Below, piece by piece: positions 5,964 to 51,620 of a stretch of 55,101 nucleotides of DNA. The DNA lies in the IMG/VR virus record IMGVR_UViG_3300048849_000134, positions 1 through 55,101 of that record; one strand, given 5' to 3'. Below the pieces are notes generated by a model. It worked only from the letters and a program-made list of their open reading frames with translations. It was not told where the DNA came from and did not search any database. Position 1 is the stretch's first letter, and every line of letters begins with the position of its first letter. The stretch is from a virus. Lineage: Duplodnaviria; Caudoviricetes. The translations under genes were made by a program, and so were the position numbers.

Positions 5964-6053
5964 AATCAGGGTCGTAGCTGATTCAACTAACTTACTTGCC
6001 TCGGGCGTTCTGGTAACCTACGACTTACCGCAACAAACGGGGCTTTATTATTT
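5964..6053 (+). ncRNA. Kissing-loop 5' leader 1
   Basis: AATCAG/CTGATT stem, loop GTCGTAG; GGTAA/TTACC stem, loop CTACGAC; outer stem then U-tract. Confidence 0.75.
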
Positions 6054-6067
6054 AAACACACGTTATT

Positions 6068-6343
6068 ATGAATGAATTTAAGCATAGTCAGGGGCCATGG
6101 ACTTACGATAATGACCCGGAAAATCCAATACATAGAATTTGGTCGGACGGAAAATTCCCTATATATCTTGCAAGAACGTGTTACGCGGGTCAAAGCGAAT
6201 CTAATGCAAAATTAATAGCAGAAGCGCCTGCATTATTAGAAATGCTATCCGACCTTGTTCGATGCTATAAGCGTGATGGGTATCTAACAAACGCAGACTT
6301 AGAGGATGCAGAATCAATAATCAACAAAGCACTTAATAAATAA
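6068..6343 (+). CDS. Conserved phage protein (HSQGPW...NAKLIAEAPALLE)
   Basis: Motif shared with 4159..4467. Confidence 0.7.
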   Translation: MNEFKHSQGPWTYDNDPENPIHRIWSDGKFPIYLARTCYAGQSESNAKLIAEAPALLEMLSDLVRCYKRDGYLTNADLEDAESIINKALNK

Positions 6344-6347
6344 TCAT

Positions 6348-6716
6348 ATGGAAATTAAAGGACGCGTACATGAAATTGGCGCACTACAACAAGTCTCTGA
6401 AACATTTAAAAAGCGGGACCTCATCATCGAGTACGCTGAAAACCCTACTTATCCGGAGTACATCAAGTTCGAGGCTATGCAGGATAAGACAGCGCTTATC
6501 GATTCAGTCAAGGTAGGCGATGAGATAGAGGTATCCTTCAACCTTCGTGGAAGACCTTGGACCGATAAGACAGGTAAAACAAGCTACTTCAACAGTATGG
6601 TGATTTGGAGATTATCAACGGTTAAGGCTGGAAGTGTTGATGTGTCTGCTCCTGCTTATCAAGCTACACCGCCCATTACTCCATTAGACGAAGGATCGGG
6701 AGATCTCCCCTTCTAG
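6348..6716 (+). CDS. DUF3127 family SSB-like protein
   Basis: FKKRDLIIE...FNLRGRPW...YFNS; acidic tail ending DLPF. Confidence 0.88.
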   Translation: MEIKGRVHEIGALQQVSETFKKRDLIIEYAENPTYPEYIKFEAMQDKTALIDSVKVGDEIEVSFNLRGRPWTDKTGKTSYFNSMVIWRLSTVKAGSVDVSAPAYQATPPITPLDEGSGDLPF

Positions 6717-6739
6717 CCTACAACACACACAAATACCCG

Positions 6740-6768
6740 CCCCTGACTATGCAAGTAGTCGGGGTTTT
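6740..6768 (+). terminator. Putative intrinsic terminator
   Basis: CCCTGACTAT-GCAA-GTAGTCGGGG-TTTT. Confidence 0.65.
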
Positions 6769-6815
6769 CAGGTGCCGGGCAGTCCGGTTTTACTTCTCAC
6801 ACAAATAAGATTTTT

Positions 6816-7397
6816 ATGAATGTTTTAGTTGCCTGCGAATACAGCGGGGCCGTCAGGGATGCGTTTATAGCTAAAGGACATAATTCCGTAAGCTGTGATT
6901 TATTACCAACAGATAAGCCCGGACCGCACTATATGGGTGATGTTAGGTATATGCTTGAAAACCGTAAATGGGATTTAATTATTGCACATCCTCCATGTAC
7001 ATACATGAGCAACAGCGGTGTAAGATGGTTGTATAATACGGATGGCAGTAAAAACCAGGAAAGGTGGGATAACCTAAAGGAGGCAACGGAGTTCTTCAAC
7101 CTGTTCTACAACTATACCGGGGTTACAAAGATGTGTATTGAAAACCCTATTCCTCATAAGCACGCTAATTTACCAGATTACGCGCAAACTATTCAGCCGT
7201 GGGAATTTGGACACACCACCAGCAAGCGAACTTGTTTATGGTTAAAAGGCTTACCTAAGTTAGAGCCGACTAAGATAGTCCCCAAGGAAGAACGCACTCA
7301 GGACATTTGGCTTGCTTCCCCGGGACCCGACAGGTGGAAAATAAGATCGGCTACTTTTACGGGTATAGCGGAGGCTATGGCAAATCAATGGGGGTAA
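6816..7397 (+). CDS. Compact phage DNA cytosine-C5 methyltransferase
   Basis: VLVACEYSG motif I, IAHPPC motif IV, IENP motif VI, KRTCLW. Confidence 0.8.
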   Translation: MNVLVACEYSGAVRDAFIAKGHNSVSCDLLPTDKPGPHYMGDVRYMLENRKWDLIIAHPPCTYMSNSGVRWLYNTDGSKNQERWDNLKEATEFFNLFYNYTGVTKMCIENPIPHKHANLPDYAQTIQPWEFGHTTSKRTCLWLKGLPKLEPTKIVPKEERTQDIWLASPGPDRWKIRSATFTGIAEAMANQWG

Positions 7398-7430
7398 GAA
7401 AAATACTTGGTGCCGCTAGGGCAATAAATT

Positions 7431-7569
7431 GAACAGGTAGCTAAAGGTATTGGCTATTCGAAACTAGAAAGGCGTTGTTGAAAGAATGAATCGATGATAC
7501 AGAGGACTAGCAACACAGTGGGTTACAATGAGACACGTCGCTACGCGGGTTCGATTCCCGCCCTGTTCA
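7431..7569 (+). ncRNA. tRNA-like RNA with ~87-nt insert replacing anticodon/variable arms
   Basis: Acceptor GAACAGG/CCTGTTC, D-arm TAGCTAAAGGTATTGGCT, T-arm GCGGG-TTCGATT-CCCGC. Confidence 0.75.
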
Positions 7570-7591
7570 CACAAGGTTATGATATAAAATT

Positions 7592-7750
7592 ATGAAAGAT
7601 GTAAAAGGTTATTTAGTATGTTATGTTTCATGTAATTGTCCTGAATGTAAATCAGAATCGCAATTCCAAAAGACCCCAGATGATCAGGTATACGAGGTTG
7701 TTAAGTGTGGTTTATGTGGTATTCACTTTAAAGTTGTAGGGTTAGAATAA
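7592..7750 (+). CDS. Small zinc-ribbon protein (52 aa, not in ORF track)
   Basis: CPEC...CGLC; stop overlaps next ATG. Confidence 0.65.
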   Translation: MKDVKGYLVCYVSCNCPECKSESQFQKTPDDQVYEVVKCGLCGIHFKVVGLE

Positions 7751-7944
7751 TGCAACTCCCCCTATTCACCATCATAACAAGCCGTATAACAGGCGCACGC
7801 ATCCAGGTGGCACAAGTACTCGGCGATCTGATTATAGGTAAACTGATGGGCTTTAAACGATATCCACCATCCCAAGTGCGCAGGGCGTATGATGGAACTA
7901 AAATTATACATAATCGAAATGCAATACCATGCCAGGAAAAATAA
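7750..7944 (+). CDS. Hypothetical protein
   Basis: TAATG coupling. Confidence 0.5.
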   Translation: MQLPLFTIITSRITGARIQVAQVLGDLIIGKLMGFKRYPPSQVRRAYDGTKIIHNRNAIPCQEK

Positions 7945-8594
7945 GATTTGACACCACCGGAATGACACCGGAGCAGATAAAGCAAGAACAGGCTAAAAGG
8001 AGAAAATTGAACTCACAGGTTTACTATCAGTTTCAGCGCGAGTTGCAAGGATTACCGCCAGCTAAACCACGCGCAGACCGAAGTAAGATGACTCCTGATC
8101 AGATTAAAGAACACATAAACAAGATGAACCGGGATAGGCGTAAAGCCGCTAAAAATGAAGATATGCCGACAAACAAGAAAGAATACTATCATTCAAGACC
8201 GCCTGAGGTAAAAGAAAAAATACTTGCCCGGATGAGAGAAAACCGGATTAGGCTGCACAAAGAAAAACGTGAAGCCGCCGGACTGCCATACATTCCAAAG
8301 GCTGATCGCTCAAAAGCGCGTGCAGAAAAGAAGGCTATACCAAAGAAACCACGTGCTCCCAAAGCCGCCAAGTTGCCCACTCCCCTTCCGCGCGCCGCCA
8401 AACCAAAACACAAGCTGGATCCGATTAAGATAGGTAAACAAGAGCGCGTATTGCCTACCAGGAAAGTGGATGAATCCAAACTCGTTAAACTGTACATACC
8501 TGAGCGCAGAATGCATGTGCTTTATGATCCATCGAAAAGGACAGAGCAGGAGGTTAGGGAGAAGTATAAGGTTGCACCAATTAAGATAAGGTAA
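7929..8594 (+). CDS. Lys/Arg-rich hypothetical protein
   Basis: Highly basic; internal MTPEQIK/MTPDQIK repeat. Confidence 0.7.
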   Translation: MPGKIRFDTTGMTPEQIKQEQAKRRKLNSQVYYQFQRELQGLPPAKPRADRSKMTPDQIKEHINKMNRDRRKAAKNEDMPTNKKEYYHSRPPEVKEKILARMRENRIRLHKEKREAAGLPYIPKADRSKARAEKKAIPKKPRAPKAAKLPTPLPRAAKPKHKLDPIKIGKQERVLPTRKVDESKLVKLYIPERRMHVLYDPSKRTEQEVREKYKVAPIKIR

Positions 8595-8598
8595 GTAT

Positions 8599-8940
8599 AT
8601 GACACATTCAATCTACGCCGGACTACCTGAAAATAGCAGGCGACTATTTCGCCAAAATTCTAACAGTACAACACCAGAGGACATAATTATTGCTGTATGT
8701 GCCGTAACTGATATCACGCGGGATCAGATCGTAAGCCCCTCCCGAAAAAGAGAGATCGTAGAGGCTCGGCATATAGCCATAGGACTGATACTTCAATCAT
8801 TCAGGAATATAGGCCTAAAGGAGGTTGGACGCATGTTTAACCGTGATCATTCAACCGTGATATATGCCAGGGAAACATACAGGGATCTAATGGAAACGGA
8901 TCGTGATTTCCGAAAGAAAGTAGCCTTGGTAAAACTTTAA
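8599..8940 (+). CDS. Stand-alone DnaA C-terminal (domain IV) HTH protein
   Basis: SRKREIVEARHIA...LKEVGRMFNRDHSTVIYA. Confidence 0.85.
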   Translation: MTHSIYAGLPENSRRLFRQNSNSTTPEDIIIAVCAVTDITRDQIVSPSRKREIVEARHIAIGLILQSFRNIGLKEVGRMFNRDHSTVIYARETYRDLMETDRDFRKKVALVKL

Positions 8941-8951
8941 GCGATTATTTT

Positions 8952-8993
8952 TACTACGTTTTTATTATTGTTAATAAAAAATGATTATACTTG
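8952..8993 (+). promoter_or_regulatory. Class A motif copy 2 with -7 box
   Basis: TACTACGTTTTTATTATTGTTAATA then TATACTTG. Confidence 0.8.
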
Positions 8994-8996
8994 TAA

Positions 8997-9118
8997 AGCG
9001 GTTTGACGGTCGCTAAAAAATTTAAGTATCATCCTCACCACATAGATTCAAACCTTCGCATTCGCGATTGTCAGGCCGTCAACCCATAAAAATATGTGGT
9101 GTGGGTAATACTGTTTTG
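8997..9118 (+). ncRNA. Kissing-loop 5' leader 2
   Basis: AGCG/CGCT hairpin, loop TTGACGG; CCGTCAA inside CACCACATA/TATGTGGTG stem. Confidence 0.7.
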
Positions 9119-9140
9119 TGTATTGTAAATATTAAACATC

Positions 9141-9515
9141 ATGGATATCGATCAACTAAAAGGTTTATCAAAAACAGAAACATTTGATTTTATTAGAAGA
9201 TCCCTATTACCGGAAGGTGAGCAAGATTTGTCTAAGCACTACCGGTTTAACATGTCAGGATACGAATCTAAGACAGGGGAATGCACAGTGCACAATCAAT
9301 TTGTGTTAAATAAGTTTGCCTTCTTAGGTATTTACGACTACACCGACTTTCTATTTCTTGATTTCTATAAAGGAGCCCCAACCCTGTACTTTAGATACTG
9401 GTGTGACGACATTTTAAATGAAGTAGATTATTCAGGTGAAGGAACAACAAGTATTATTTACGACATAATGATGCTAACGATATTTTCCGGTAAAAGTACA
9501 AGGAGACGCAATTAA
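9141..9515 (+). CDS. Hypothetical protein
   Basis: First ORF behind leader 2. Confidence 0.7.
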   Translation: MDIDQLKGLSKTETFDFIRRSLLPEGEQDLSKHYRFNMSGYESKTGECTVHNQFVLNKFAFLGIYDYTDFLFLDFYKGAPTLYFRYWCDDILNEVDYSGEGTTSIIYDIMMLTIFSGKSTRRRN

Positions 9516-9527
9516 AGATCAAACAAC

Positions 9528-9842: not shown

Positions 9843-9851
9843 TTCCATCTC

Positions 9852-12188
9852 ATGAAAACAGATTTAGGAAAGTGCAAGAAATTACTAGATTCAGGATTAT
9901 CTCTATTATGCGTAGGCGATAATAAGGTGCCTAACTTTCCCTGGAAAAAAAGACAGACTGAGGCTTATCCTAAATCTGATTTTGAAAAAGATTATAACTA
10001 CTCAGGGGGAATAATAAGGAAAGATGGAACAGAAATACCACCAACAAACGGCATAGGCATAGTTACGGGCTTCAATGGTATTGAGGTTATTGATATTGAC
10101 CTTAAAATTTTACCATCACTTAAACTTCAGCAAGATTTTTGGAATGAATTTACCTCTTTCCTTAAAGATAATATTGATGACTTCGATTCCAAGTTCGTCA
10201 TTTATAAGACCGTAAATAACGGATACCACATCATTTACAAGTGCAAGGTAATCGGTGGAAATGAGAAAATAGCAAAACTAAAGGGGCATGACCAGGCTAT
10301 TATCGAAACCAGAGGCGTTGGCGGTTATGTTTTTATTTACGAAAATCAAGTATCGAAAAAATCCTACACTGACATTCAGGAGATATCTGAAATGGATCGA
10401 GAAGTACTGTTCGGCATTTGTAAATACTACAACTACGTCGGTGAAATTGAACCTATAGTAATTGAAGTAAAGCCTGAATCAGAAAAAGAAGATGCCTCTG
10501 AAATTAGTATAGATATTAGCGTATGGGATGATTACAATCAAAAAACGACTATGATGGATATTCTGTCAAGCGATTTTTCTATTGTGAGAAACTTGACCGA
10601 TAAGCTAATTATCAAACGATCTGGTGCCGAGTCTGCACACAGCGGATACATATACAAAGATACCGGATGCATGTATCTATTTACTACTGGTACACTATAC
10701 CCAAGCGAAAAACTTATTAGCCCTTTTGCGGCATACACTTACAAAAACCATAACGGAGATTTCAGTAAATCCGCAAAAGAACTGTACCAACAGGGTTTCG
10801 GTTCTAGGGTTGTTAAAAAGATTAAGGAGTTAAATACTGAGATTCCGGAAGAAATTCAAGACATAGATTTTCCGATTGAGGTTTTCCCTTTGGAAATTCA
10901 GAACTACATAAGGAAATGTAATGAGACACTTGATAGTTCTATTGATTACATGGGCTGCAGTATGCTATGGATGATATCTGTTATTATGGGCAATTCCATA
11001 AAGATTCAAGTTAAGCCAGGCTGGAAAGAGCCAGCAGTTGTCTGGATAAGTGTGTTAGGAAAAGCGGGTATAGGTAAAACTCCATCTATTCAAAATATCG
11101 TTTCTCCGCTCATGGAGATTAATAACCGGGAGCAAAAGAAGTACGTCAAGCAGTATGAGAAATACGAAGCTTTCATGGAGTTGGATAAAAAGGAACGGTT
11201 GAATACTGAGGAAATTAAAAAGCCGAAGAAAAGTCAGTTCATTGCTAATGATATAACCTTTGAGGCCCTGGTTGATTTGCATGAGGAAAATAAAAATTCA
11301 GTTGGTGTTTTTAAAGATGAACTCGCAGGATGGTTTAAGGATATGAATAAATACCGTTCCGGATCCGACCTAGAATCCTGGTTGATGTCCTGGAATGGTA
11401 CGTCTATTTCATTAAATAGAAAAAGTGCAAAATCATCGTTTGTAGATAAGCCATTTATACCGGTACTAGGAGGTATTCAGCCGGGGATCATGGACCAGTT
11501 TTATACCGATGAAAATAAAGACAGCGGGTTTCTTGATCGTATGCTTTTCTGTCTCCCCGACCTTATGGTTGATGAGTACAACGATGATGAAATGGATGAT
11601 GAGATTATAACATGGTATTCCGACTACATGGTTGCCTTTTACGATAACATACGCAGGCACCTGGTCAAGTATGATGCAGACGACAACATTGTGCCGCTAA
11701 TAGCGAAATACAGTCCGGATGCAAAAACGGAATGGATAAGGATTTTCAATAAGGTCACTGCTATGCAGAACAGCGATGAAGAAAATGAATACATGAAGTC
11801 TATGCTGCCTAAGCAAAAATCCTACATCCCTAGGTTTGCTGCCTTAATAAACACGTTTAGTGTATTCAGTAAGAGTGGAACTGTTGCGGACTTCAATACC
11901 ATTAGCAAAGAATCAATTTTGGCCGCTGAAAAACTATCGGACTACTTCATTTTAATGGCTAAAAAGATCAAGGTATCTAGCTCAGAAATAAGCACCATCA
12001 AGCGACAAGTCAAGTTTAATGAAGGTAAAAGTGCATTTGAAGTTTTTCAGGTCCTTTATAAGCGAAATTCTAAGTTGAATAAAACTGAAGTAGCTGAAGT
12101 ATTAGGTATATCTAGAAAAACTGTATACGAGTTCATCAAAAAGTGTAACGGTCACAGTGAAAAAGTGTCACCATTGAAAACGGCTTAA
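9852..12188 (+). CDS. Bifunctional primase-polymerase fused to DUF3987 P-loop domain
   Basis: GIGIVTG..IEVIDID, GYHIIY, IETRGVGGY; GKAGIGKT Walker A, DELAG, GGIQP, GFLDR; C-terminal HTH. Confidence 0.88.
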   Translation: MKTDLGKCKKLLDSGLSLLCVGDNKVPNFPWKKRQTEAYPKSDFEKDYNYSGGIIRKDGTEIPPTNGIGIVTGFNGIEVIDIDLKILPSLKLQQDFWNEFTSFLKDNIDDFDSKFVIYKTVNNGYHIIYKCKVIGGNEKIAKLKGHDQAIIETRGVGGYVFIYENQVSKKSYTDIQEISEMDREVLFGICKYYNYVGEIEPIVIEVKPESEKEDASEISIDISVWDDYNQKTTMMDILSSDFSIVRNLTDKLIIKRSGAESAHSGYIYKDTGCMYLFTTGTLYPSEKLISPFAAYTYKNHNGDFSKSAKELYQQGFGSRVVKKIKELNTEIPEEIQDIDFPIEVFPLEIQNYIRKCNETLDSSIDYMGCSMLWMISVIMGNSIKIQVKPGWKEPAVVWISVLGKAGIGKTPSIQNIVSPLMEINNREQKKYVKQYEKYEAFMELDKKERLNTEEIKKPKKSQFIANDITFEALVDLHEENKNSVGVFKDELAGWFKDMNKYRSGSDLESWLMSWNGTSISLNRKSAKSSFVDKPFIPVLGGIQPGIMDQFYTDENKDSGFLDRMLFCLPDLMVDEYNDDEMDDEIITWYSDYMVAFYDNIRRHLVKYDADDNIVPLIAKYSPDAKTEWIRIFNKVTAMQNSDEENEYMKSMLPKQKSYIPRFAALINTFSVFSKSGTVADFNTISKESILAAEKLSDYFILMAKKIKVSSSEISTIKRQVKFNEGKSAFEVFQVLYKRNSKLNKTEVAEVLGISRKTVYEFIKKCNGHSEKVSPLKTA

Positions 12189-12457: not shown

Positions 12458-13690
12458 ATGAAAACATTAAGGAACTACCAAATCGAGAATGCAGAAAAAG
12501 GAACCGAAATTTTAATAAAGCACGGCATTGTTTACCTAGCAATGGAGGTGAGATGTGGCAAGACTGCCACGGCTTTGCAGATCGCAAATCTTTACCAGGC
12601 TAAGAAAGTTTTATTCCTAACCAAAGTAAAGGCAATCGGATCTATCCAGGATGATTACTCGCAGTTTGGATTTACGTTTGAATTGCAGGTGGCAAACAAT
12701 GAAAGTCTACACAAGGTGCTTGATAATGACTTCGATCTAATTATTCAGGATGAGGCTCACCGATTCGGGGCATACCCAAAACCTGGTAAGATGGCTAAGG
12801 ATTTTAAAGCAAGGTTTAAAAAACTGCCTATTGTATTTTTATCTGGCACCCCTACCCCGGAATCATACAGCCAGATATACCATCAGCTATGGGTATCGGA
12901 AAAAAGCCCTTTTGCGAAATATTCGAACTTTTATAAGTGGGCCAAAGATTTTGTTACTGTAAAAGACAAATATGTTTCTTACGGCATTTGCAAGGATTAC
13001 AGCCACGCAAATAAAAAAATGATAGATGAGCACGCCAAACATCTGTTTTTGCCTTACACGCAGGCTGAGGCTGGATTTACCAGCGTTATCAATGAGCATA
13101 TACTCGAATGCCCAATGCTTCCATCAACATACTCGCTTATTAAGCGGCTGCAAAGAGATCTGGTTGTTGAAGGTAAAGGAGAGGTTATCTTGGCTGATAC
13201 AGGTGTTAAACTGCAGCAGAAAATACATCAGCTGTACTCCGGCAGTATTAAGTTTGAAAGCGGTAAAAGAATGGTACTTGACAACAGCAAAGCTGTATTC
13301 ATTAAAGAGAAATTCAAAGGTAAAAAGGTAGGTATTTTCTACAAGTTCATTGCTGAGTATGATGCTCTTAAAAGCGTTTTTGGAGATGATCTTACAAATG
13401 ACCTTGAGGAATTTAATTCTACTGGAAAACATATTGCATTACAAATTATCTCTGGCAGGGAAGGAATAAGCCTGAAAAATGCAGATTGCTTGGTTTACTT
13501 TAACATCGATTTCAGCGCAACATCATACTGGCAAAGCCGGGACCGACTAACTACAATGGAAAGGAAGTCAAACGATATCTACTGGATATTTTCAGTCGGA
13601 GGAATAGAGCGGAAAATTTATGACTGTGTGATGGGTAAGCGAGACTATACCCTGAGCAACTTTAGAAAGGATTATCATTATGGCCAGTAA
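12458..13690 (+). CDS. SF2 (SNF2-like) helicase
   Basis: LRNYQ, MEVRCGKT, DEAH, LSGTP, GREGISL, QSRDR. Confidence 0.88.
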   Translation: MKTLRNYQIENAEKGTEILIKHGIVYLAMEVRCGKTATALQIANLYQAKKVLFLTKVKAIGSIQDDYSQFGFTFELQVANNESLHKVLDNDFDLIIQDEAHRFGAYPKPGKMAKDFKARFKKLPIVFLSGTPTPESYSQIYHQLWVSEKSPFAKYSNFYKWAKDFVTVKDKYVSYGICKDYSHANKKMIDEHAKHLFLPYTQAEAGFTSVINEHILECPMLPSTYSLIKRLQRDLVVEGKGEVILADTGVKLQQKIHQLYSGSIKFESGKRMVLDNSKAVFIKEKFKGKKVGIFYKFIAEYDALKSVFGDDLTNDLEEFNSTGKHIALQIISGREGISLKNADCLVYFNIDFSATSYWQSRDRLTTMERKSNDIYWIFSVGGIERKIYDCVMGKRDYTLSNFRKDYHYGQ

Positions 13691-14179: not shown

Positions 14180-14217
14180 TACTACGTTTTTATTATCATT
14201 AATAATTCTTACATTTG
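14180..14217 (+). promoter_or_regulatory. Class A motif copy 3 with -7 box
   Basis: TACTACGTTTTTATTATCATTAATA then TACATTTG. Confidence 0.8.
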
Positions 14218-14715: not shown

Positions 14716-14928
14716 ATGGGAGCGCACATACAGTTCACAGAAACTCACGATACAGGAAAGACTAAGGTTTTTTCCGCTGAATGTAATGATGCTTTTCTTG
14801 GCAATGTCAAATGGTATGCTCCATGGAGAAGATATACCTTTCATCCAGCGCAAGATACCTTGTTCGATAGTTCATGCCTTAAAGAGATCACTTCTTTTAT
14901 TGGTGGTTTAATGGAGGATCGGAAGTAA
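14716..14928 (+). CDS. Conserved phage protein
   Basis: LGNVKWYAPWRRYTF motif. Confidence 0.7.
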   Translation: MGAHIQFTETHDTGKTKVFSAECNDAFLGNVKWYAPWRRYTFHPAQDTLFDSSCLKEITSFIGGLMEDRK

Positions 14929-15443
14929 TGGCAAACTTAACCGACAAACAAGAGAAGTTTTGCCAGGAATACCTGATTGATCTTAACGCCACACAAGCAG
15001 CGATAAGGGCTGGATATTCCGAGACTACGGCGCGATCATTAGGCGCTGAGAACCTTACAAAACCTGACATCCAACTCAGACTATCAGAATTGAATAAAAG
15101 TCGCTTAGAAGCCACCGGAATAAGCCAGAAAAGAGTTTTAGAGGAGTACTCTAAGATAGCTTTCTTTGACATAAGAAATATTTATACCGAAAACGGAGCT
15201 TTGAAGCGGCCTGGTGAATTAAGCGATTTTGAAGCAGGAGCGGTATCTGGTATTAAAACCTTTGAAGTTTACGCTCAAGGCGAGATGGTTGGTGAAAACA
15301 AAGAGGTTAAAGTATTCGACAAATTAAGGGCATTGGAGGCTTTATCTAAGCACTTGGGCTTATTCGAGAAAGACAATAGCCAAAAGGCAGTTGAAGTGCC
15401 TAAGCAGGTTATAATCATTAACGGTAAAGAAGTTGAGTTCTAA
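14928..15443 (+). CDS. terS: Terminase small subunit
   Basis: LTDKQEKFCQEYLIDLNATQAAIRAGYS. Confidence 0.93.
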   Translation: MANLTDKQEKFCQEYLIDLNATQAAIRAGYSETTARSLGAENLTKPDIQLRLSELNKSRLEATGISQKRVLEEYSKIAFFDIRNIYTENGALKRPGELSDFEAGAVSGIKTFEVYAQGEMVGENKEVKVFDKLRALEALSKHLGLFEKDNSQKAVEVPKQVIIINGKEVEF

Positions 15444-16872
15444 TGTACCGCAAAACAGACAGGTCTTATTTGAGCCATTCCCTAAGCAGGAAGAGTTCAT
15501 TAATGCTGTATTAAGCGGAGAGTATTCCTTTGTCCTTTTTGGGGGTGCCATTCGGGGCGGTAAGACGTTTTCATTGCTTGCTCTATTCCTTATCCTTTGC
15601 CGTGTGTTCCCGGGTAGCAGATGGGCTCTGGTCCGTAAGGACCTACCAACGATTAAAAGGAACCTTTACCCTTCATGGGATAAGATCAAGCCAACACACT
15701 TCATAGCTAAGCACAATAACGAAACGCATACCGTAACTTTCATTAATGGTTCGCAGATCATTTTCTATCCTGAAAACTATGCTCAGGATAAGAACCTGGA
15801 TCGATGGAAAGGGCTTGAGGTAAATGGTTTTGGATTTGAGGAAATAAACGAATGCCAACAGGTTACTTTATTTAAGGCATTTGAACGTGCCGGATCATAT
15901 GTTGTGCCAGGGCTTAAAATACAGCCTAAGCCCATAGTTGTAGGCACTTGCAACCCAACACAAGGATGGGTGAAAGAAATGGTTTATACGCCTTGGAAAC
16001 AAGGTGCACTTAAAAAGTCATGGCATTATATCCAGTCGCGTATACACGACAACCTCCCTTTGCTTGCAGCTCAACCTGATTACCTTCCGTCATTGAGGGA
16101 AAACTTAAATACATATGAATTTTTAGTTTATGTCGAGGGAGATTGGGATGTTCAATTAAAAACAGGTGGTGAGTTCTTAGGTAAGTTTGAGTTAAGTGAT
16201 CACGTACGCCCTCTAACATGGGAGGTAGATAAAATGATCTGTGTGTCGTTGGATAGCAACGTTTACCCATATGTGGCTGTTTCCATTTGGCAGATCATAC
16301 CTGATGGAATGAATAAGATCATTAGACAGGTCCATGAGCTACATGCAGAGGATCCGATTAATACCGGGACAAAAGCGGGCAAGAATGTTGGTGAATGGTT
16401 GAAAGGTATAAACTATAATCAGCGTGTTAAGGTTTACGGAGATAGGTCTACCAAAAATCGCAACAATATCGATGATAATAAAAAGTCCTTCTTTGCCTTA
16501 TTTACCGAGGGCATATCAAACGAGGGATTCAGAATAGAGGACTGCATGCTGAATAATGCGCCGGTGGTATCAACCATTGCTGACTTTGTTAATGCCATCC
16601 TTGCAGGTGAAATACCTGGATTGAGAATCGAGATAGCAGAGCACTGCAAAACCTCAATCAACGACTACATAGAAACTAAGACAAATGAGAATGGAGGGGT
16701 TTTAAAGGTTCGAGTTAAACATCCTACTATTGATAAGCTGACTTACGAAAAGAACGGCCACCTTACCGATACCCTGAAAGACTTCATCGTGTCTGCATTC
16801 AATAAGGAATACCTGGCCTTTACCAACAAGAATAAACGCTCGGATTTTCGTAGATTATCTATTATCAAGTAG
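15433..16872 (+). CDS. terL: Terminase large subunit
   Basis: GGAIRGGKT Walker A, FEEINE Walker B, TCNP, C-terminal GHLTD nuclease motif. Confidence 0.92.
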   Translation: MSSNVPQNRQVLFEPFPKQEEFINAVLSGEYSFVLFGGAIRGGKTFSLLALFLILCRVFPGSRWALVRKDLPTIKRNLYPSWDKIKPTHFIAKHNNETHTVTFINGSQIIFYPENYAQDKNLDRWKGLEVNGFGFEEINECQQVTLFKAFERAGSYVVPGLKIQPKPIVVGTCNPTQGWVKEMVYTPWKQGALKKSWHYIQSRIHDNLPLLAAQPDYLPSLRENLNTYEFLVYVEGDWDVQLKTGGEFLGKFELSDHVRPLTWEVDKMICVSLDSNVYPYVAVSIWQIIPDGMNKIIRQVHELHAEDPINTGTKAGKNVGEWLKGINYNQRVKVYGDRSTKNRNNIDDNKKSFFALFTEGISNEGFRIEDCMLNNAPVVSTIADFVNAILAGEIPGLRIEIAEHCKTSINDYIETKTNENGGVLKVRVKHPTIDKLTYEKNGHLTDTLKDFIVSAFNKEYLAFTNKNKRSDFRRLSIIK

Positions 16873-16946: not shown

Positions 16947-16985
16947 TACTACGTTTTTAATATAGTTAATAATTGCGTATGTTTG
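16947..16985 (+). promoter_or_regulatory. Class A motif copy 4 with -7 box
   Basis: TACTACGTTTTTAATATAGTTAATA then TATGTTTG. Confidence 0.8.
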
Positions 16986-16993: not shown

Positions 16994-17080
16994 GGTCGTG
17001 TGGTAGCGATCATAACGAATTTTAGAGCATTCAGGAGGGCGGCATCTACCACAGCCAAACTTCTGGATGCTTTGTCTTTT
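16994..17080 (+). ncRNA. Kissing-loop 5' leader 3
   Basis: Loop TGTGGTAG vs loop CTACCACA; outer stem AGAGCATTCAGGAG/CTTCTGGATGCTTT; U-tract. Confidence 0.75.
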
Positions 17081-17093: not shown

Positions 17094-17357
17094 ATGAGCA
17101 CATTCGAATACGAGCTCCCTAAAGGTAAGATCGATGGATCTGAACCTGCACAATCAACTTTTCAAAAGTTTGCAGATGGCAGCACAATTCAAACATTTGG
17201 TTTAAGCATTAGAGCGCACTTTGCAGCTATTGCCATGCAGGGGATGCTACACAAAGGCGCTATGACTGAGCACGGAGTGATTTCTCAGGCTCCTGACACT
17301 ATCGCTATGTTGGCCGTTAATCAAGCCGACGCCCTCATATCCGCCCTAAACAAATAA
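17094..17357 (+). CDS. Conserved phage protein (GxSxRxxFAAxAMQG...ADAL family)
   Basis: Recognisable motif; ATG after leader 3. Confidence 0.75.
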   Translation: MSTFEYELPKGKIDGSEPAQSTFQKFADGSTIQTFGLSIRAHFAAIAMQGMLHKGAMTEHGVISQAPDTIAMLAVNQADALISALNK

Positions 17358-20165: not shown

Positions 20166-20206
20166 TACTACGAATTTGTTATCGTTAATATTTATGGTTA
20201 TCTTAG
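20166..20206 (+). promoter_or_regulatory. Class A motif copy 5 with -7 box
   Basis: TACTACGAATTTGTTATCGTTAATA then TATCTTAG. Confidence 0.8.
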
Positions 20207-20210
20207 TGTT

Positions 20211-20313
20211 TCGGTAGCCTTCGAAACTAAACCGAGTTAAAACATTCATTACCCTTGATTATCCAAGTACAGAGTTCGAAGGCTGAAAAGGAAGTCGAGG
20301 GTTTATTATTTTT
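20211..20313 (+). ncRNA. Kissing-loop 5' leader 4
   Basis: AGCCTTCGAA in TCGGT/ACCGA hairpin vs TTCGAAGGCT inside ACCCTTGATT/AGTCGAGGGT stem; U-tract. Confidence 0.75.
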
Positions 20314-22547: not shown

Positions 22548-22588
22548 TACTACGTTTTTGTTATCTTTAATAATTAGTGTTATATTAG
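22548..22588 (+). promoter_or_regulatory. Class A motif copy 6 with -7 box
   Basis: TACTACGTTTTTGTTATCTTTAATA then TATATTAG. Confidence 0.8.
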
Positions 22589-22779
22589 CATAAGCAAAAG
22601 GGGAATGGCCCAGTAGCATACAGGAACGGTTACTACATAGGGCTGTTTCTTTTTGATAGAACAAATACCCTATAACGCATAATTATAGAATAAACGTTAA
22701 ATAATTTACCCGTTCATTGGTGATTTATATTTGGTTAGAGCGTACATCGGATGGTGTGCGCTTGTTAAATGAACAAAAT

Positions 22780-22854
22780 GCACGCTAATGTTCCAAGGCA
22801 AGGCGAGTTGGATTCCAAACCCGACTGAGTAAGGTTCGATACCTTAAGCGTGTG
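22780..22854 (+). tRNA. trnW: tRNA-Trp (CCA)
   Basis: Acceptor GCACGCT/AGCGTGT, anticodon loop TTCCAAA, T-arm TAAGG-TTCGATA-CCTTA; 3' CCA not encoded. Confidence 0.8.
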
Positions 22855-22880
22855 CAAATGAAACAACTTTAATTGAGTAT

Positions 22881-23038
22881 TTGGATTCCTAAAGCTACGG
22901 ATAAGGATGAAAAAATGAATGTTGTTTGAACTATGATAGGAGAATAGGATTACTCGCCGGGGCATGAGGCCGTGGAGATACAGGGTTAGAATCCCGACAT
23001 AGAATGTTATTCAAGTCCTGATCTCACCGGGAATCCAA
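22881..23038 (+). ncRNA. Long nested stem capped by a degenerate tRNA-Met-like cloverleaf
   Basis: TTGGATTCC/GGAATCCAA, AGGAT/GTCCT, TGAATG/TATTCA and CTATG/CATAG enclose a D-like arm, a CAT loop and GGG-TTAGAAT-CCC. Confidence 0.55.
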
Positions 23039-23080
23039 CGAGACAGGCATCACACCCCGCAAGGGTAGTTTTCAAGGATG

Positions 23081-23115
23081 TTAGCGTGGGTTGTGGCGAC
23101 TCACGCTAATTTGTT
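23081..23115 (+). terminator. Strong hairpin, putative terminator
   Basis: TTAGCGTGGGTTG-TGG-CGACTCACGCTAA-TTTGTT. Confidence 0.65.
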
Positions 23116-23298
23116 ACCAAAGCGCCACCTGAACGAGTAACCTAACATTCAAGTATATGGGAACATTAGCGCTAATCACCATCAGCCTAACAGCAATCAG
23201 CCTGATCGCAATGATCTGGGCGTGTATGACAGCCACAGAGGTAGACGAATTTGAACACAAAGTAACCGTAAATGAAGCGGCTTAAAGCATTTACATAT

Positions 23299-23418
23299 AT
23301 GGATGATTACGACGAAGAAGAAACCGACAACGATAATTGCTGCGACAATCCAGACATTAAAAGTTCCACATACACTGATTGGTGTGAGAACTGTGGTTGG
23401 AGCTACAGCTACCTTTAA
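23299..23418 (+). CDS. Small acidic Cys-rich protein (39 aa)
   Basis: MDDYDEEE..CCDNP..WCENCGW. Confidence 0.5.
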   Translation: MDDYDEEETDNDNCCDNPDIKSSTYTDWCENCGWSYSYL

Positions 23419-23442
23419 TTAATTAGATATAGAAAAGTTATA

Positions 23443-23727
23443 ATGAAAACACTTAAAAAAATAACCATTAAACCCATGTATGTTGAATCTATCCCTGATT
23501 TAACTGAAATGGAACAAAAGGTTTTGTATATCAGCAAGCACTATAAAACAGCAGCACATATGTGCCTATGTGGTTGCGGGGAGGAAACAATAACACCACT
23601 AAATGAATACGGATGGATACTGACCGATAACGAAGGGAAAATATCCTTACAGCCATCTATAGGAAACTATCAATTTGAATGTAAGTCACATTACATCATT
23701 ACAAACAACGTAGCGAATTTCGTTTAA
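23443..23727 (+). CDS. DUF6527 family protein (second copy)
   Basis: LYISKHYKTAAHMCLCGCGEETITPL..W..ISLQPSIGNYQFECKSHYII. Confidence 0.85.
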   Translation: MKTLKKITIKPMYVESIPDLTEMEQKVLYISKHYKTAAHMCLCGCGEETITPLNEYGWILTDNEGKISLQPSIGNYQFECKSHYIITNNVANFV

Positions 23728-32546: not shown

Positions 32547-32586
32547 TACTACGAATTTGTTATCGTTAATATTTTTACTATATTTA
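32547..32586 (+). promoter_or_regulatory. Class A motif copy 7 with -7 box
   Basis: TACTACGAATTTGTTATCGTTAATA (identical to copy 5) then TATATTTA. Confidence 0.8.
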
Positions 32587-47876: not shown

Positions 47877-47921
47877 GTAAACGCATGCCTTAAACATACT
47901 GAGGCGGGCTTCTTAACTTTA
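47877..47921 (+). promoter_or_regulatory. Class B (late) promoter
   Basis: GTAAAC 47877; TAACTTTA 47914. Confidence 0.7.
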
Positions 47922-47929
47922 GTTAATGG

Positions 47930-49045: not shown

Positions 49046-49062
49046 TATATCAATGACCGCGC

Positions 49063-49107
49063 GTAAACCCACAACTCACTATACCACAACTATGTAAGTT
49101 AACTTTG
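49063..49107 (+). promoter_or_regulatory. Class B (late) promoter, lysis cassette
   Basis: GTAAAC 49063; TAACTTTG 49100. Confidence 0.75.
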
Positions 49108-49117
49108 TTAAACAAGA

Positions 49118-49928
49118 ATGAACATGATTAGATCAATTGATTTTTACGGCAAATACATGCCTCTATTCCTCCCGACTGTGGGGGGTGTAGTGATAGTATT
49201 GATGCTGATAATGCTATTAATGCTTAGCACGCTAAACAAAAGGGTAAGCCGATTAGAAGAAAAGGTAACCAAACTGATTACGGACTGATGGATGACACAA
49301 GAACAAAAAACCAAAATAGAACTACCAGAGGGTTGGAGAAAACTAAACTTCTACTCTCTGAATTTAGCGTATTGCTTTTTTGTTCTGTTCGTTTCGCTCC
49401 AGGTTCCATCGGTTTCTAAAATTCTGATTAAAGCGTTTAGCGAGCCCATGTATGATGCTATAAATGGCTGGGTACTGATATGCCTGCTGATAACTTCTGC
49501 AGGAGCCGGAATACTTGGTTTTATCAGAATGGTAAGTGTGAAAAAACTGATTAACCTGATTGAGCATGACGAAAATGATAAGTGAAACGGTTAGCTACGG
49601 CATAGTGATGCTCATTGAGAACACGATCATTCTGTGTCTGCTTTATGACTTGATGTGCAGGGTGGTGTATAAGATACGGCGTATCGCTCACCCGCACGTT
49701 CAGTGGAAGTCGGGGCTTATATTTTTGTGCTACCTGCTTTGCGTTACTGCGTTCAACCTATCAGCATTTTACACCTGCTACGTCAATTACCTGATGTCAG
49801 ATGATCCGATCTATACAGTAACAGTATCGGCCAGGGTGTTTGAAAGGACAATGATCCTGTGCGCGAAGGGCCTGTTATGGTACTACACCTGTAAGGGAGA
49901 TTTTATATTATTTAAAGGGAAGATATGA
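49118..49928 (+). CDS. Three membrane proteins, holin/antiholin candidates (49118-49288, 49292-49585, ~49560-49928)
   Basis: 1, 2 and about 3 hydrophobic segments; directly upstream of endolysin. Confidence 0.6.
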
Positions 49929-50536
49929 ACAAGGCTACATTCTTTACATCGATACGAAACAGCCTATTTGGTGGTAAACTTACTCAGGGTGTAGTTGATA
50001 CGACTGAGGCAATTAACAAGGCTCTGGATAAGTATTGCGTTACTGATTATCGTCAGCGGGCATATGTATTTGCCACCGCTAGGCATGAATCATATCACTA
50101 TGGTCGTAACCCGGAATGGCTCCCGGTCCGTGAGGGGTGGGCAAGTACCAATCAGGGCGCAATAAATGCCGTTACATCACTACACAAGCGTGGTGTGATC
50201 AGCAAGAACTATGCATTGCCACTTGCAAACGGTCACAGCTATTACGGGCGTGGCTTCGTTCAGATAACCTGGGATTACAACTACAAGTCAGTAGGCAAAC
50301 GTTTAGGGGTAGACCTCTATAATAACCCAGACTTAGCATTAGACCGGGATATTGCTGCTGAAATACTTGTTGTTGGGATGAAAGAGGGCTTGTTCACTGG
50401 CAAGAAACTAAGCAACTACTTTACCGAATCGGGCACCGACAATAAGAATGCACGCAGGATAATTAATGGTATGGACCAAGCTGAATTGATAGCCGGTTAT
50501 GCAGATAAGTTTTACATGGGTTTGATTTTGAAGTGA
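49925..50536 (+). CDS. Endolysin, GH19 lysozyme-like
   Basis: AYVFATARHES..YYGRGFVQITWDYNY..ARRIING. Confidence 0.9.
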   Translation: MNKATFFTSIRNSLFGGKLTQGVVDTTEAINKALDKYCVTDYRQRAYVFATARHESYHYGRNPEWLPVREGWASTNQGAINAVTSLHKRGVISKNYALPLANGHSYYGRGFVQITWDYNYKSVGKRLGVDLYNNPDLALDRDIAAEILVVGMKEGLFTGKKLSNYFTESGTDNKNARRIINGMDQAELIAGYADKFYMGLILK

Positions 50537-50783
50537 TGAAAACCTAAACTTTATCTGGCCCAAAGAAGCATTTAAGAACTTCCTTGCACTGTTTGTATTA
50601 GGCATCATGTTCTACCTATTATATATACGTAGCGAACTAAGAGACTCAATGTTTGTGCTGATCACTTTGGTGGTTAAGCATTATTTCGATTCAACATCTG
50701 CCAGCAACAAAAAAGACGATACAATTAACTCAATGGCTAACAGCATTCCAAACGCGCCTGAAAATGAAACCAAGCAAATCTAA
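50536..50783 (+). CDS. Holin-like membrane protein, start uncertain
   Basis: Two hydrophobic segments, VVKHYFDSTSASNKKDDTI; first in-frame ATG only at 50607. Confidence 0.55.
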
Positions 50784-51390
50784 CCTCCTGATCCTAGTAT
50801 TAGTTGTGGTTATCGGTTTCTTAATTATCCGGGGATGTAACCAATCCAATACCAATACCACTAGCACCCTGACTGATCAGCGCGATCTTGCCAAGGCTGA
50901 AAGCGACACGTTACGGGTTGATACGAACAAGGACGGATCAAAGGAATACAGCAAAGACACGTATGCCGTGACCGATAAAGATTTATTAATTGCCGAGCTC
51001 AGTAAAAAAAACAAGGCGCTTGCGGCTATGGTTCAGAATAAGGATAAGGCAGGGCTGCGCACCATTACAAACACAGTTTACCGAGATACAGGCCGCACCA
51101 TAATTGACACTGTGAAAGATACCCGGACTGCAAACATACATACCCCATACTACGATGCTGATATCGTTTCCGGTCCAGAGCGCACGACCTTGGATATTAC
51201 CAGGATGACCGACACGGTGGCTTATAATATAGATAAGAACTACAGACTACACGCCAAGCATTCAAATCCTCATGTGGATGTTGTGGAGCTGGAATCGTTC
51301 TACGTCAAGCCGGCGGTCCGTAAGAAGAACTGGAAATATGTTGTAGGTGGTATTATTGCCGGAGGATTGGTGTACGGGGTTACGCGATGA
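50764..51390 (+). CDS. Spanin, probably unimolecular
   Basis: N-terminal hydrophobic stretch ending IRGC plus C-terminal TM helix; last gene of lysis cassette. Confidence 0.65.
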   Translation: MKPSKSNLLILVLVVVIGFLIIRGCNQSNTNTTSTLTDQRDLAKAESDTLRVDTNKDGSKEYSKDTYAVTDKDLLIAELSKKNKALAAMVQNKDKAGLRTITNTVYRDTGRTIIDTVKDTRTANIHTPYYDADIVSGPERTTLDITRMTDTVAYNIDKNYRLHAKHSNPHVDVVELESFYVKPAVRKKNWKYVVGGIIAGGLVYGVTR

Positions 51391-51468
51391 TCTTTGCCCT
51401 CCTATACTTTTGCGTGTTGGCGTTAGGGGCTTATAAGTTGCTGAGGGAGCGTTGAAAATAAATATTTA

Positions 51469-51506
51469 TACGATGTTTTTATTATCGTTAATAAAATGTA
51501 TATTGC
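51469..51506 (+). promoter_or_regulatory. Class A motif copy 8 with -7-like box
   Basis: TACGATGTTTTTATTATCGTTAATA then TATATTGC. Confidence 0.75.
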
Positions 51507-51511
51507 GGTAT

Positions 51512-51620
51512 AATTAGCAGCGTTCGACTTCTAGCTAGTTTCACAAAGACATTAACACCCTTATTACATCCTATTGAGAGGTCGAACGCTCATTGGATTG
51601 GTAAGGGTTTATTTATTTGT
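51512..51620 (+). ncRNA. Kissing-loop 5' leader 5
   Basis: AGCGTTCGACTT in AATTAGC/GCTAGTT hairpin vs AGGTCGAACGCT; outer stem ACCCTTATTA/TGGTAAGGGT; U-tract. Confidence 0.75.

Follow-up and report, generated by a model that had tools for sequence, protein, structure and literature searches.

Five operons of a temperate Flavobacteriales phage open with a folded RNA leader in which the loop of a 5'-terminal hairpin is complementary to the apical loop of a long, terminator-like hairpin further downstream. All five lie on the + strand of the window, by which we mean the whole 55,101-nucleotide stretch of DNA that was analysed, and they belong to a family of cis-acting 5' leader RNAs that is conserved among uncultured Flavobacteriales phages. 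The structure of this family and its conservation form the firm part of our analysis. Judging from sequence, we read the leaders as promoter-proximal cis-acting attenuators locked into a compact fold (probability roughly 0.5), whose role is probably the control of an early transcription stop.

Leaders and promoters in the window

Structured 5' leader RNAs directly 3' of a common promoter class had been predicted, and five such leaders are indeed present in the window. The promoter motif TACGNNTTTNNTATNGTTAATA has eight matches there at up to three mismatches, all on the + strand, where 0.31 would be expected (at most two matches were found in 100 shuffles). Five of the eight carry a kissing leader, and the other three lie at 14183, 22551 and 32550. 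The promoters are of the Bacteroidota sigma-A type, with TAnnTTTG at -12 to -5, preceded by a TTTG some 19-20 nt before it. Across 49 aligned curated cases the TAnnTTTG box is present by selection, whereas the upstream TTTG was unselected and still stands out at positions -31 to -28, counted from the end of the box (T in 31, T in 38, T in 30 and G in 24 of the 49). From the box to the start of hairpin 1 the median distance is 5 nt; in Flavobacterium psychrophilum, the box is placed at -12 to -5 (PMC9723704).

The layout opens with a -33/-7 promoter of the Bacteroidota kind, and the transcript has its first hairpin at about +2. A linker rich in A and poor in G leads to a long hairpin and a T-tract, and an ATG follows 6-27 nt on. 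The long hairpin is built from an outer stem of about 10 bp, a purine-rich symmetric internal loop, an inner stem, and an apical loop of 8-13 nt that is complementary to loop 1. The features are as follows.

5911-5949, + strand: class A promoter 1; 22-nt common motif 5911-5932, -7 box TATATTAG 5942-5949
5964-5983, + strand: leader 1 hairpin 1; 6-bp stem, 8-nt loop with GTCGTAG
5998-6053, + strand: leader 1 hairpin 2 and T-tract; hairpin 5998-6043, apex loop CCTACGAC 6017-6024, internal loop GGC/AAA, T-tract 6044-6053, ATG 6068
8955-8993, + strand: class A promoter 2; motif 8955-8976, -7 box TATACTTG 8986-8993
8997-9014, + strand: leader 2 hairpin 1; loop TTTGACGG
9025-9122, + strand: leader 2 long branched hairpin 2 and T-rich tail; hairpin 9025-9112, small apical arm GG-CCGTCAA-CC 9074-9084, tail 9113-9122, ATG 9141
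14183-14204, + strand: class A promoter with a short unstructured leader, without the kissing layout
16950-16985, + strand: class A promoter 3; motif 16950-16971, -7 box TATGTTTG 16978-16985
16994-17011, + strand: leader 3 hairpin 1; 6-bp stem, TGTGGTAG 16999-17006
17027-17080, + strand: leader 3 hairpin 2 and T-tract; hairpin 17027-17070, 11-bp outer stem, internal loop GGC/AAA, inner stem GGC/GCC, apex loop 17044-17053, T-tract 17071-17080, probable ATG 17094
20169-20206, + strand: class A promoter 4; motif 20169-20190, -7 box TATCTTAG 20199-20206
20208-20227, + strand: leader 4 hairpin 1; 7-bp stem, AGCCTTCGAA 20216-20225 over the loop and 3' arm
20251-20313, + strand: leader 4 hairpin 2 and T-tract; hairpin 20251-20302, apex TTCGAAGGCT 20275-20284, AAGUA/AAAA internal loop, T-tract to 20313, ATG 20314 (GIY-YIG/NUMOD endonuclease)
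22551-22654, + strand: class A promoter and terminator-like hairpin without a 5' kissing hairpin; a related attenuator-like unit, not a member
32550-32571, + strand: class A promoter with a short unstructured leader, without the kissing layout
51472-51506, + strand: class A promoter 5; motif 51472-51493, -7 box TATATTGC 51499-51506
51512-51540, + strand: leader 5 hairpin 1; 7-bp stem, 15-nt loop with AGCGTTCGAC 51519-51528
51557-51623, + strand: leader 5 hairpin 2 and T-rich tail; hairpin 51557-51608, apex GTCGAACGCT 51581-51590, tail to 51623, ATG 51628 (HTH_3/XRE protein)

The operons behind the leaders are functionally unrelated to each other. All ten words of the five complementary pairs first reported were verified on the + strand (window coordinates): GTCGTAG 5971 / CTACGAC 6018 in leader 1, TTGACGG 9003 / CCGTCAA 9076 in leader 2, TGTGGTAG 16999 / CTACCACA 17046 in leader 3, AGCCTTCGAA 20216 / TTCGAAGGCT 20275 in leader 4, and AGCGTTCGAC 51519 / GTCGAACGCT 51581 in leader 5. 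That the apex is the reverse complement of the first loop holds for all five, but in leaders 2, 4 and 5 the complementarity exceeds the loop and extends into the 3' arm of hairpin 1 or into the apical stem. In both loops, 0-2 nt stay unpaired 5' of the kissing helix, and no nucleotide does so 3' of it.

In the MFE folds of leaders 1, 3, 4 and 5, the first word lies in or at the loop of the short 5' hairpin and the second forms the apex of the long one; in leader 2 the second hairpin is longer and branched. Fold z-scores are -2.10, -2.63, -3.67, -1.30 and -1.49 for leaders 1-5. The gene behind leader 3 probably starts at ATG 17094 rather than at the in-frame ATG 17067 of the open reading frame list, which falls within the hairpin.

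Conservation and covariation

The expectation that loop sequences vary while their complementarity is kept was confirmed both within the genome and between phages. Leaders 4 and 5 are paralogues whose kissing helices differ by two double changes, both compensatory. Related uncultured Flavobacteriales phages show the layout too, with other loop sequences and, again, compensatory changes. The leaders have what marks a putative kissing-loop complex, Watson-Crick complementarity of two hairpin loops kept by compensatory change. The kissing helix of one alignment (A2) has eight pairs, 100% paired, with five two-sided and no one-sided changes. In a second (A5; 27 diverse members, fitted to the model), 93.9% of cells are paired and 20 of 20 pairs covary, a covariation score reached by none of 500 shuffles of this model-fitted alignment. 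These curated sets were picked by a detector that demands the kiss and are in that respect circular; only the swapped-pair test, the promoter and 5'-end analysis, and the primase-operon survey are partly free of this. In the survey, which covered 48 non-redundant leaders preceding the homologous primase operon, 34 showed the layout. In the swapped-pair test, a cognate apex matched its own upstream region over at least 7 nt at 19 of 30 loci, compared with 66 of 870 swapped pairs.

Model R2 has 49 of its 51 matches on the gene strand and recovers hairpin 2 of leader 3 (E 0.00045 in 1.18 Mb, 5e-05 in 132 kb). Internal loops recur as well, namely GGA/AAA, GGC/AAA, GAGUA/GAAA in both orientations, UGAU/UGAU and GGAU/UGAA, and three-way-junction variants add a second loop-linker pairing. 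A variant of the layout is present in the cultured Cellulophaga phage Nekkels_1. Host chromosomes, searched with a model of limited sensitivity, gave no genuine copy.

The leaders had not been recognised as a named family, and this stands: the whole window has no Rfam 15 match at gathering thresholds, and in five 3-kb loci around the leaders an E value of up to 10 gave four chance-level matches, none within a leader. A literature search for such a leader design found no description. The kissing-leader design is conserved and, apparently, undescribed.

Terminator form and gene start

The long stem had been called terminator-like, and rightly so, as it has the GC-rich stem base with a T-tract immediately after it that marks an intrinsic terminator. 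At least five T's occur in the 8 nt after hairpin 2 in 25 of 34 members when a T-run was not required of them (background 15.8%), and in relatives T-tracts of 5-8 adjoin the GC-rich stem base as a rule. The U-tract described at the end of the long stem is seen in the window in part: T-rich tails are present, but they are interrupted, of the TTTATTATTT type, and break after three T's (that of leader 2 follows an extended stem). The window tracts may therefore be weak terminators, or just the AU-rich translation start region of Bacteroidota. Many relatives have a separate plain terminator upstream of the promoter, which suggests that the leader hairpin acts on transcripts of its own promoter. 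Plain terminators between 5 and 24 kb of the window show no excess over chance (12 found, 15.3 expected).

These interrupted tracts count in favour of an alternative, on the whole unlikely, in which the leader is purely a stabiliser or insulator. The closed 5' fold would guard the mRNA from 5'-end-dependent decay with little or no termination, keeping upstream RNA off an unstructured start region that lacks a Shine-Dalgarno sequence, and the T-rich tail would be AU-rich start context. The start of hairpin 1 at about +2, the unpaired ATG 6-27 nt past the fold, and a constitutive loop pairing that makes a competing structure unnecessary all fit this picture. It sits poorly with the T-tracts that abut the stem base in relatives, and it leaves the conserved internal loop and the kiss unexplained, since a simple 5' hairpin is enough for protection.

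In 47 of 50 curated cases, 6-27 nt separate hairpin 2 from the ATG, and none of the five window folds has this codon paired; both points speak against the translation block of the original prediction. Its other arm, a switch between pseudoknot and terminator, is not supported either. The complementary word lies in the apical loop and not in the outer stem, so the kissing helix does not compete with the terminator stem and both structures can form; by the same token, structure alone offers no route to modulate termination. Pseudoknot-free MFE folds contain both hairpins in only 21 of 50 curated leaders, which makes an alternative nested pairing of the same words energetically possible.

Loop codes and their specificity

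Within the window, the match between hairpin-1 loop and apex is 7, 7, 8, 10 and 10 nt for the cognate pairs of leaders 1-5, and 3-5 nt in all 20 off-diagonal cells. Shuffling the apex gave a match at least as long as the real one in 411, 380, 209, 2 and 3 of 20000 trials, respectively, and among 2749 comparable segment pairs from the whole window only 38 have matches of 7 nt or more. The window holds no third copy of the 8-10-nt codes, code and complement occurring once each (the record is an estimated 60% complete), and no further copy of any of the five apex words; the two 7-nt words do recur by chance, with copies of one strand only.

Mutually non-complementary codes are what one would expect of orthogonal RNA switches, where loop-loop pairing would alternate with a terminator or translation block under a separate code for each leader, possibly with terminated leaders working in trans on leaders still being made. 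As pairing enters the hairpin 1 arm in leaders 2, 4 and 5, strands could conceivably exchange to some extent, and a nested long-range helix is often preferred in MFE folds. We nevertheless consider such switches clearly improbable: the apical loop lies outside the terminator stem, start codons are not sequestered, and the 8-10-nt codes lack a third copy in the window. Complete relatives have a single leader each, so orthogonality is no family trait, and the proposed set of addressable switches finds no backing. Distinct codes are instead the outcome expected from compensated drift and avoidance of long direct repeats: they would differ between leaders because selection acts on complementarity only, and long identical repeats in one genome would, in addition, be recombinogenic.

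The likening of the leaders to P4 CI and P1 C4 is not supported. Those systems are defined by a processed trans RNA and two target copies; among the 8-10-nt codes, no regulatory word with at least two complementary targets occurs in the window.

A possible mode of action

In the attenuator reading, transcription would start from a host-type Bacteroidota sigma-A promoter, after which loop 1 and the apical loop of hairpin 2 would pair over 7-10 nt into an intramolecular kissing complex. Together with the bend at the internal loop, the kiss would hold the terminator hairpin and the 5' end in one closed fold. At the T-tract, some polymerases would halt and set free a compact transcript of about 85-120 nt. 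The closed fold could set the efficiency with which the terminator hairpin forms, present a sequence-independent shape to a read-through factor, and shield the 5' end of read-through transcripts. That the leader terminates, regulates and protects in this way is a tentative proposal, to which we give slightly less than even odds.

Should polymerases halt as proposed, the released RNA could itself be what the unit serves to make: a stable small RNA whose two ends are buried in one fold and which acts on a host or phage target. Small RNA genes are laid out in this way, with a strong consensus promoter and, about 90-120 nt further on, a terminator. With a sequence that varies freely save for its internal complementarity, there is no conserved target seed, and the placement directly before a start codon is invariant, which renders this option very improbable.

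A promoter-proximal terminator also requires a means of passage, and this would be provided if the folded leader were an antitermination platform that rides on the polymerase (as HK022 put does) or uses its shape and internal loop to bind a factor of phage or host origin, rendering the polymerase resistant to the leader's own and to downstream terminators. The unit lies just downstream of early or middle promoters in a temperate phage, and it is a two-hairpin RNA with conserved purine-rich internal loops, which are often protein-binding. Yet there are no conserved nucleotides able to contact polymerase, no antiterminator or other candidate factor was identified among the scanned window proteins, and few other terminators are seen downstream in the window; we regard such a platform as rather improbable.

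Bolder still, and doubtful, is the idea of a new phage gene-control RNA class. Here, the apical loop of a promoter-proximal intrinsic terminator would be captured by a 5'-terminal hairpin, and whether the polymerase stops would be decided by the closed kissing fold, with its bend at an internal loop of tandem-GA or loop-E-like type, either via a shape-reading factor or by riding on the polymerase in a put-like manner. Re-codable loop pairs would then allow several independent copies per genome without cross-pairing or recombination.

Significance

To our knowledge, gene control in Bacteroidota phages is almost unexplored. As far as we know, Bacteroidota also do without Shine-Dalgarno-based initiation, so leader RNAs may bear more of the regulation. 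We found no description in the literature of a conserved, pseudoknotted leader with covarying pairs in which the 5' end is linked to a terminator hairpin. If the leader tunes termination, it would be a compact, re-codable natural part, with one shape and many mutually non-pairing loop codes, and would interest both structural biologists working on RNA and designers of synthetic attenuators. In uncultured flavobacterial phages it would further show where early or middle operons begin. The Nekkels_1 variant makes the design testable at the bench.

Comparison with known systems

In the lambdoid late unit (PR' - 6S RNA - tR'), too, an intrinsic terminator lies within about 100-200 nt of a phage promoter, and polymerase has to get past it for the operon to be expressed. 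There, passage depends on Q, and a short terminated RNA is made by default; among the scanned window proteins, none was identified as Q-like. The leaders differ in their long terminator hairpin with a conserved internal loop and a tip that pairs with the 5'-terminal hairpin, and in being present in up to five units per genome. HK022 put RNAs and EAR resemble them as cis-acting two-hairpin RNAs just downstream of early phage promoters. However, put RNAs have a conserved sequence and no terminator of their own, and we know of no loop-loop complementarity in them, whereas the leaders have both loop-loop complementarity and their own terminator form, with no Rfam match within them at E up to 10.

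In pT181 RNAI, ColE1 RNA I/II and R1 CopA/CopT, two hairpins are joined by a loop-loop helix of 7-8 nt that is fully paired, and in pT181 the pairing is coupled to terminator formation in the leader. Those antisense copy-number RNAs are two molecules from opposite strands, whereas both loops of our leaders lie in one sense transcript, for which no antisense promoter or partner was seen. P4 CI and P1/P7 C4 govern premature termination or translation through short complementary words that covary between relatives; unlike their processed trans RNA with two targets, each of the 8-10-nt codes in the window is present as a single word with a single complement, and a given leader carries the two in its hairpin loops.

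Leaders of the purine riboswitch type share an intramolecular loop-loop contact (L2-L3) and a 5' leader ending in an intrinsic terminator, but they have an invariant ligand pocket and a terminator that competes with the aptamer; in the phage leaders almost no nucleotide is conserved and the terminator hairpin itself bears one kissing loop. Finally, the T4 gene 32 leader pseudoknot and the ompA-type stabiliser hairpins also fold the very 5' end of a phage or bacterial mRNA, and an unstructured, AU-rich stretch separates that fold from the start codon. They have no terminator-like hairpin and no conserved loop-loop design, in contrast to the leaders, which combine both and precede five unrelated operons.

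The window and its leaders

The window is a provirus record (IMG/VR) of 55,101 bases, 60% complete by estimate, with nearly all its genes on the + strand. The phage is temperate, and most of its non-immediate-early operons are driven by class A promoters, which combine a shared 22-nt motif (TACGNNTTTNNTATNGTTAATA) with a −7 box. With up to 3 mismatches allowed, the motif occurs eight times, on the + strand every time, against a mean of 0.31 and a maximum of 2 copies in the shuffled window. About 6–15 nt 3′ of each copy lies a −7 box of the Bacteroidota type (TAnnTTTG or a near variant), which PMC9723704 places at −12 to −5 in Flavobacterium psychrophilum.

The recurring hairpin layout described in the original prediction follows directly after five of the eight promoters (5911, 8955, 16950, 20169, and 51472), giving leaders 1–5: hairpin 1 near the 5′ end of the transcript, an A-rich linker, a long terminator-like hairpin 2, a T-tract, and an ATG. 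In the MFE folds, a short hairpin at the 5′ end is followed by a second, long one (longer and branched in leader 2), with complementary words in or at the two loops, and all ten words predicted earlier were found in place. MFE folding of entire intergenic regions missed leaders 2, 4, and 5. Pairing of the loop of hairpin 1 with the apical loop of hairpin 2 is called the kiss herein. The class A promoters at 14183 and 32550 have short leaders devoid of the kissing fold. At 22551, a terminator-like hairpin and T-tract follow the promoter, and the kissing partner is missing.

The genes and leaders are arranged as follows.

Gene order and leaders in the window
388–1101, − strand: CI-like repressor (HTH_3 and Peptidase_S24)
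1278–1862, + strand: LuxR/GerE-type regulator that also matches sigma-70 region 4 weakly and lies divergent from the CI-like repressor
Next in order, before leader 1: RecT and exonuclease
Leader 1, followed by a phrog_1273 protein, DUF3127, and a DNA methyltransferase
Leader 2, followed by the primase/helicase and a helicase
14928–16872: both terminase subunits (small and large)
Leader 3, followed by YopX and others
Leader 4, followed by a GIY-YIG/NUMOD endonuclease and the portal protein
Between the leader 4 operon and leader 5: endolysin
Leader 5, then an HTH_3 protein
54046–55101, − strand: integrase

The 22-nt motif is conserved well beyond the host −33/−7 elements, and the LuxR/GerE-type regulator is a candidate for its reader. 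No tRNA was found in the window. Some local details deserve mention. The PHROG 1273 small proteins form two paralogues (4159–4467 and 6068–6343), the second being the first gene after leader 1. After leader 3, the mechanical ORF start (ATG 17067) falls within the 3′ arm of hairpin 2, and the in-frame ATG at 17094, past the T-tract, is likely the true start. The stretch 22551–23442 consists of a promoter, a terminator-like hairpin (~22597–22654), and ~800 nt without an ORF of at least 60 aa before the next gene at 23443; tRNA genes are absent there, and Rfam matches do not go below E 0.71. The −7 box of leader 5 (51499–51506, TATATTGC) fits TAnnTTGY (motif SM5), a non-sigma-A class in F. psychrophilum according to PMC9723704, better than TAnnTTTG.

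Complementarity beyond chance

The longest Watson–Crick match between hairpin 1 and its own apex measures 7, 7, 8, 10, and 10 nt in leaders 1–5, against 3–5 nt in all 20 non-cognate combinations. Shuffled apexes reached these lengths in 411, 380, 209, 2, and 3 of 20,000 trials, respectively, and across the window 38 of 2,749 segment pairs of comparable kind match over at least 7 nt. A match at one structural position in five out of five leaders is, therefore, far beyond chance. Leaders 4 and 5 share an identity of 0.69 (0.56 in shuffles), the other pairs being no closer than shuffled sequences, and their aligned kissing helix contains two compensated double changes. This is true covariation within one genome; the claim that complementarity is kept while loop sequences change holds, here as well as between phages.

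Conservation of the kiss among relatives

For the DUF3987 primase/helicase (778 aa, 9852–12188, Pfam), IMG/VR contains 358 relatives, from which 80 loci were retained; four further loci stem from assembled genomes labelled Flavobacterium, Psychroflexus, Flavobacteriales, and Bacteroidetes MAGs. We compared the 220 nt that precede the primase operon's first gene in 77 loci and the window. In most of the 77, the layout is the same, and the promoter context and loop words are different.

Curated leader sets depend on the detector used to choose their members, and three tests did not presuppose the kiss, namely an apex swap, a search in which no T-tract was required, and an alignment on the −7 box. 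For the apex swap, the terminator-like hairpin was located alone in 30 non-redundant loci, and the 23 nt at its center were then matched against the preceding 80 nt. Cognate matches reached at least 7 nt in 19 loci and at least 6 nt in 28, against 66 and 227 of 870 combinations after exchange of apexes between loci. When no T-tract was demanded, 34 of 48 non-redundant leaders had the full layout, and 25 of these 34 carry at least five T within 8 nt after hairpin 2 (background 15.8%). Finally, aligning 49 curated cases on the −7 box brings out an unselected TTTG 19–20 nt upstream, which is the −33 element of Bacteroidota.

Six related leaders were aligned with MAFFT; their kissing helix comprises eight pairs with every cell paired, showing two-sided changes in five pairs and one-sided changes in none; sliding the partner by 1–3 columns lowers pairing from 95.8% to 31–41%. 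MAFFT was unsuccessful on diverse members, and a model-fitted alignment of 27 of them, a procedure that leans toward structure, has 93.9% of cells paired and 20 of 20 stem pairs covarying.

Signal separates from controls with the full-layout detector at high score only (44 forward, 9 reversed, and 20 reverse-complement hits at scores of at least 32). A naive search for stem-flanked complementary 7-mers found 3306 hits on the forward sequence, 3047 on the reverse complement, and 1974 after shuffling, the controls coming close to the signal, and another search of this kind had a similar outcome. False positives of the layout detector include short direct-repeat arrays (GTGTGAAA, GTGTAAAG, and TTTAAAC types) 40–150 nt upstream of the primase-operon promoter (L025, L027, L033, L034, L087, L035–L038, and other related loci), which are likely binding sites for a repressor or replication initiator.

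Anatomy of the leader family

Anatomical figures refer to 50 non-redundant curated members. Hairpin 1 begins a median of 5 nt past the −7 box, with a median stem of 5 bp and loop of 8 nt. The linker (median 19 nt) contains 48% A and 7% G, against 37% and 18% overall; its motif ACATT, present in 11 of 50 members where 1.75 are expected, is enriched, yet not general. Hairpin 2 (median 46.5 nt) has an outer stem of ~10 bp with a GC-rich base; a symmetric internal loop separates this stem from the inner one of 3–7 bp, which carries an apical loop of 8–13 nt. A small number of purine-rich types account for the internal loops (GGA/AAA, GGC/AAA, GAGUA/GAAA in either orientation, UGAU/UGAU, and GGAU/UGAA); we take these types to resemble tandem G-A and loop-E/sarcin-ricin-type motifs. 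The kiss spans 7–8 nt; in both loops, 0–2 nt (often A) stay unpaired 5′ of the kissing stretch and none 3′ of it. In 47 of 50 members, the next start codon (ORF of at least 40 codons) lies 6–27 nt past hairpin 2.

In some members, hairpin 2 is a three-way junction whose two arms have different partners, hairpin 1 (by a kiss) for one and the linker for the other.

Three-way-junction variants, the loop of the second arm being complementary to the linker
4290–4425 of related locus L017
Related loci L020–L022
48437–48575 of the cultured Cellulophaga phage Nekkels_1 (L154, NC_062753.1)

The Nekkels_1 variant, located 5′ of the replication operon, has the complementary pairs ATTGGAA/TTCCAAT and GTCTAAC/GTTAGAC, with fold z-scores of −4.48 and −7.45. 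The same phage carries, at ~13510–13690 and 5′ of the portal gene, a TATATTTG box and three mutually complementary segments of 9–11 nt, the first of which can pair with the second or the third, followed by a separate hairpin and T-tract. This element looks like a classical alternative-pairing attenuator, distinct from the kissing family.

Distribution

The comparison with Rfam proposed at the outset yielded no family match in the whole window at gathering thresholds and none around the leaders at E up to 10. A first covariance model, from six close relatives, was too specific, and a second one (R2) was built on 27 members. Across 1.18 Mb of phage loci, R2 gives 51 matches at E up to 1, of which 49 lie on the same strand as the genes. 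An R2 match at 5341–5426 (−) of locus L058 (E 0.0038), opposite in strand to the primase, may be the leader of a divergent operon. Since R2 finds only one of the five window leaders (leader 3), its negative results are weak. Across four MAG genomes, the sole true member is on the phage contig. In 151 genomes of one Flavobacteriales family, all 13 R2 hits at E up to 0.05 were, on inspection, plain gene-end terminators; the host-genome scan used stricter filters and scored 28 candidates per genome.

Two complete relatives (39.9 and 37.2 kb) have one member apiece, 5′ of the primase operon, and a 76%-complete relative has three; the five in the window are, therefore, an expansion. Neither the first 50 kb of the cultured Cellulophaga phage phi38:1 nor the cultured Riemerella phage RAP44 contains a convincing member. 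Megablast of window positions 1–25000 matched no cultured phage, and, judged by primase or portal protein, the closest relatives in culture share less than 33% identity.

Mechanism

The structure of the leaders, their covariation, their place at the transcript's 5′ end, their terminator form, and their fixed register before the start codon are demonstrated; we infer that they attenuate transcription. In favor of attenuation, the GC-rich stem base of hairpin 2 is abutted by the T-tract, and the sixth class A promoter (22551) likewise precedes a hairpin and T-tract. In many relatives, a separate plain terminator lies 5′ of the leader promoter; hairpin 2 is therefore not needed for ending the preceding operon and acts on transcripts of its own promoter. 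Plain terminators between 5 and 24 kb of the window showed no excess over chance under a sigma-70/terminator consensus ill-suited to the phylum and to long hairpins.

The original prediction proposed an orthogonal set of RNA switches and likened their logic to P4 CI and P1 C4. As the long codes lack a third copy, start codons are free, and complete relatives have single leaders, neither the switch model with its orthogonality nor the analogy is supported. Nor can the kiss serve as an anti-terminator: it involves the apical loop and can coexist with the full hairpin 2; we therefore read it as a tertiary lock. In such a lock, the kiss would bind the 5′ end of the transcript to the terminator hairpin, and the internal loop of hairpin 2 would supply a bend, so that the short linker could close the ring. 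The effect might be one or several of faster or stabler terminator folding, a shape for a read-through factor, and 5′-end protection.

Three other readings were rejected: a ribozyme, as a conserved core is absent; a riboswitch, as a conserved pocket is absent; and a DNA-level repeat or mobile element, as strand, promoter, and start-codon register are strict.

Comparison with known systems

The leaders were compared with put, Q, pT181, P4, and P1. A full-text literature search found no published description of kissing-loop terminator leaders. PMC10690425 lists 10,006 candidate viral RNAs without names, drawn from IMG/VR; its text mentions neither kissing loops nor Bacteroidota, and its supplementary tables may include members. 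In short, we rate the leaders as a known kind of element (structured 5′ leader or promoter-proximal attenuator) whose architecture is new to description.
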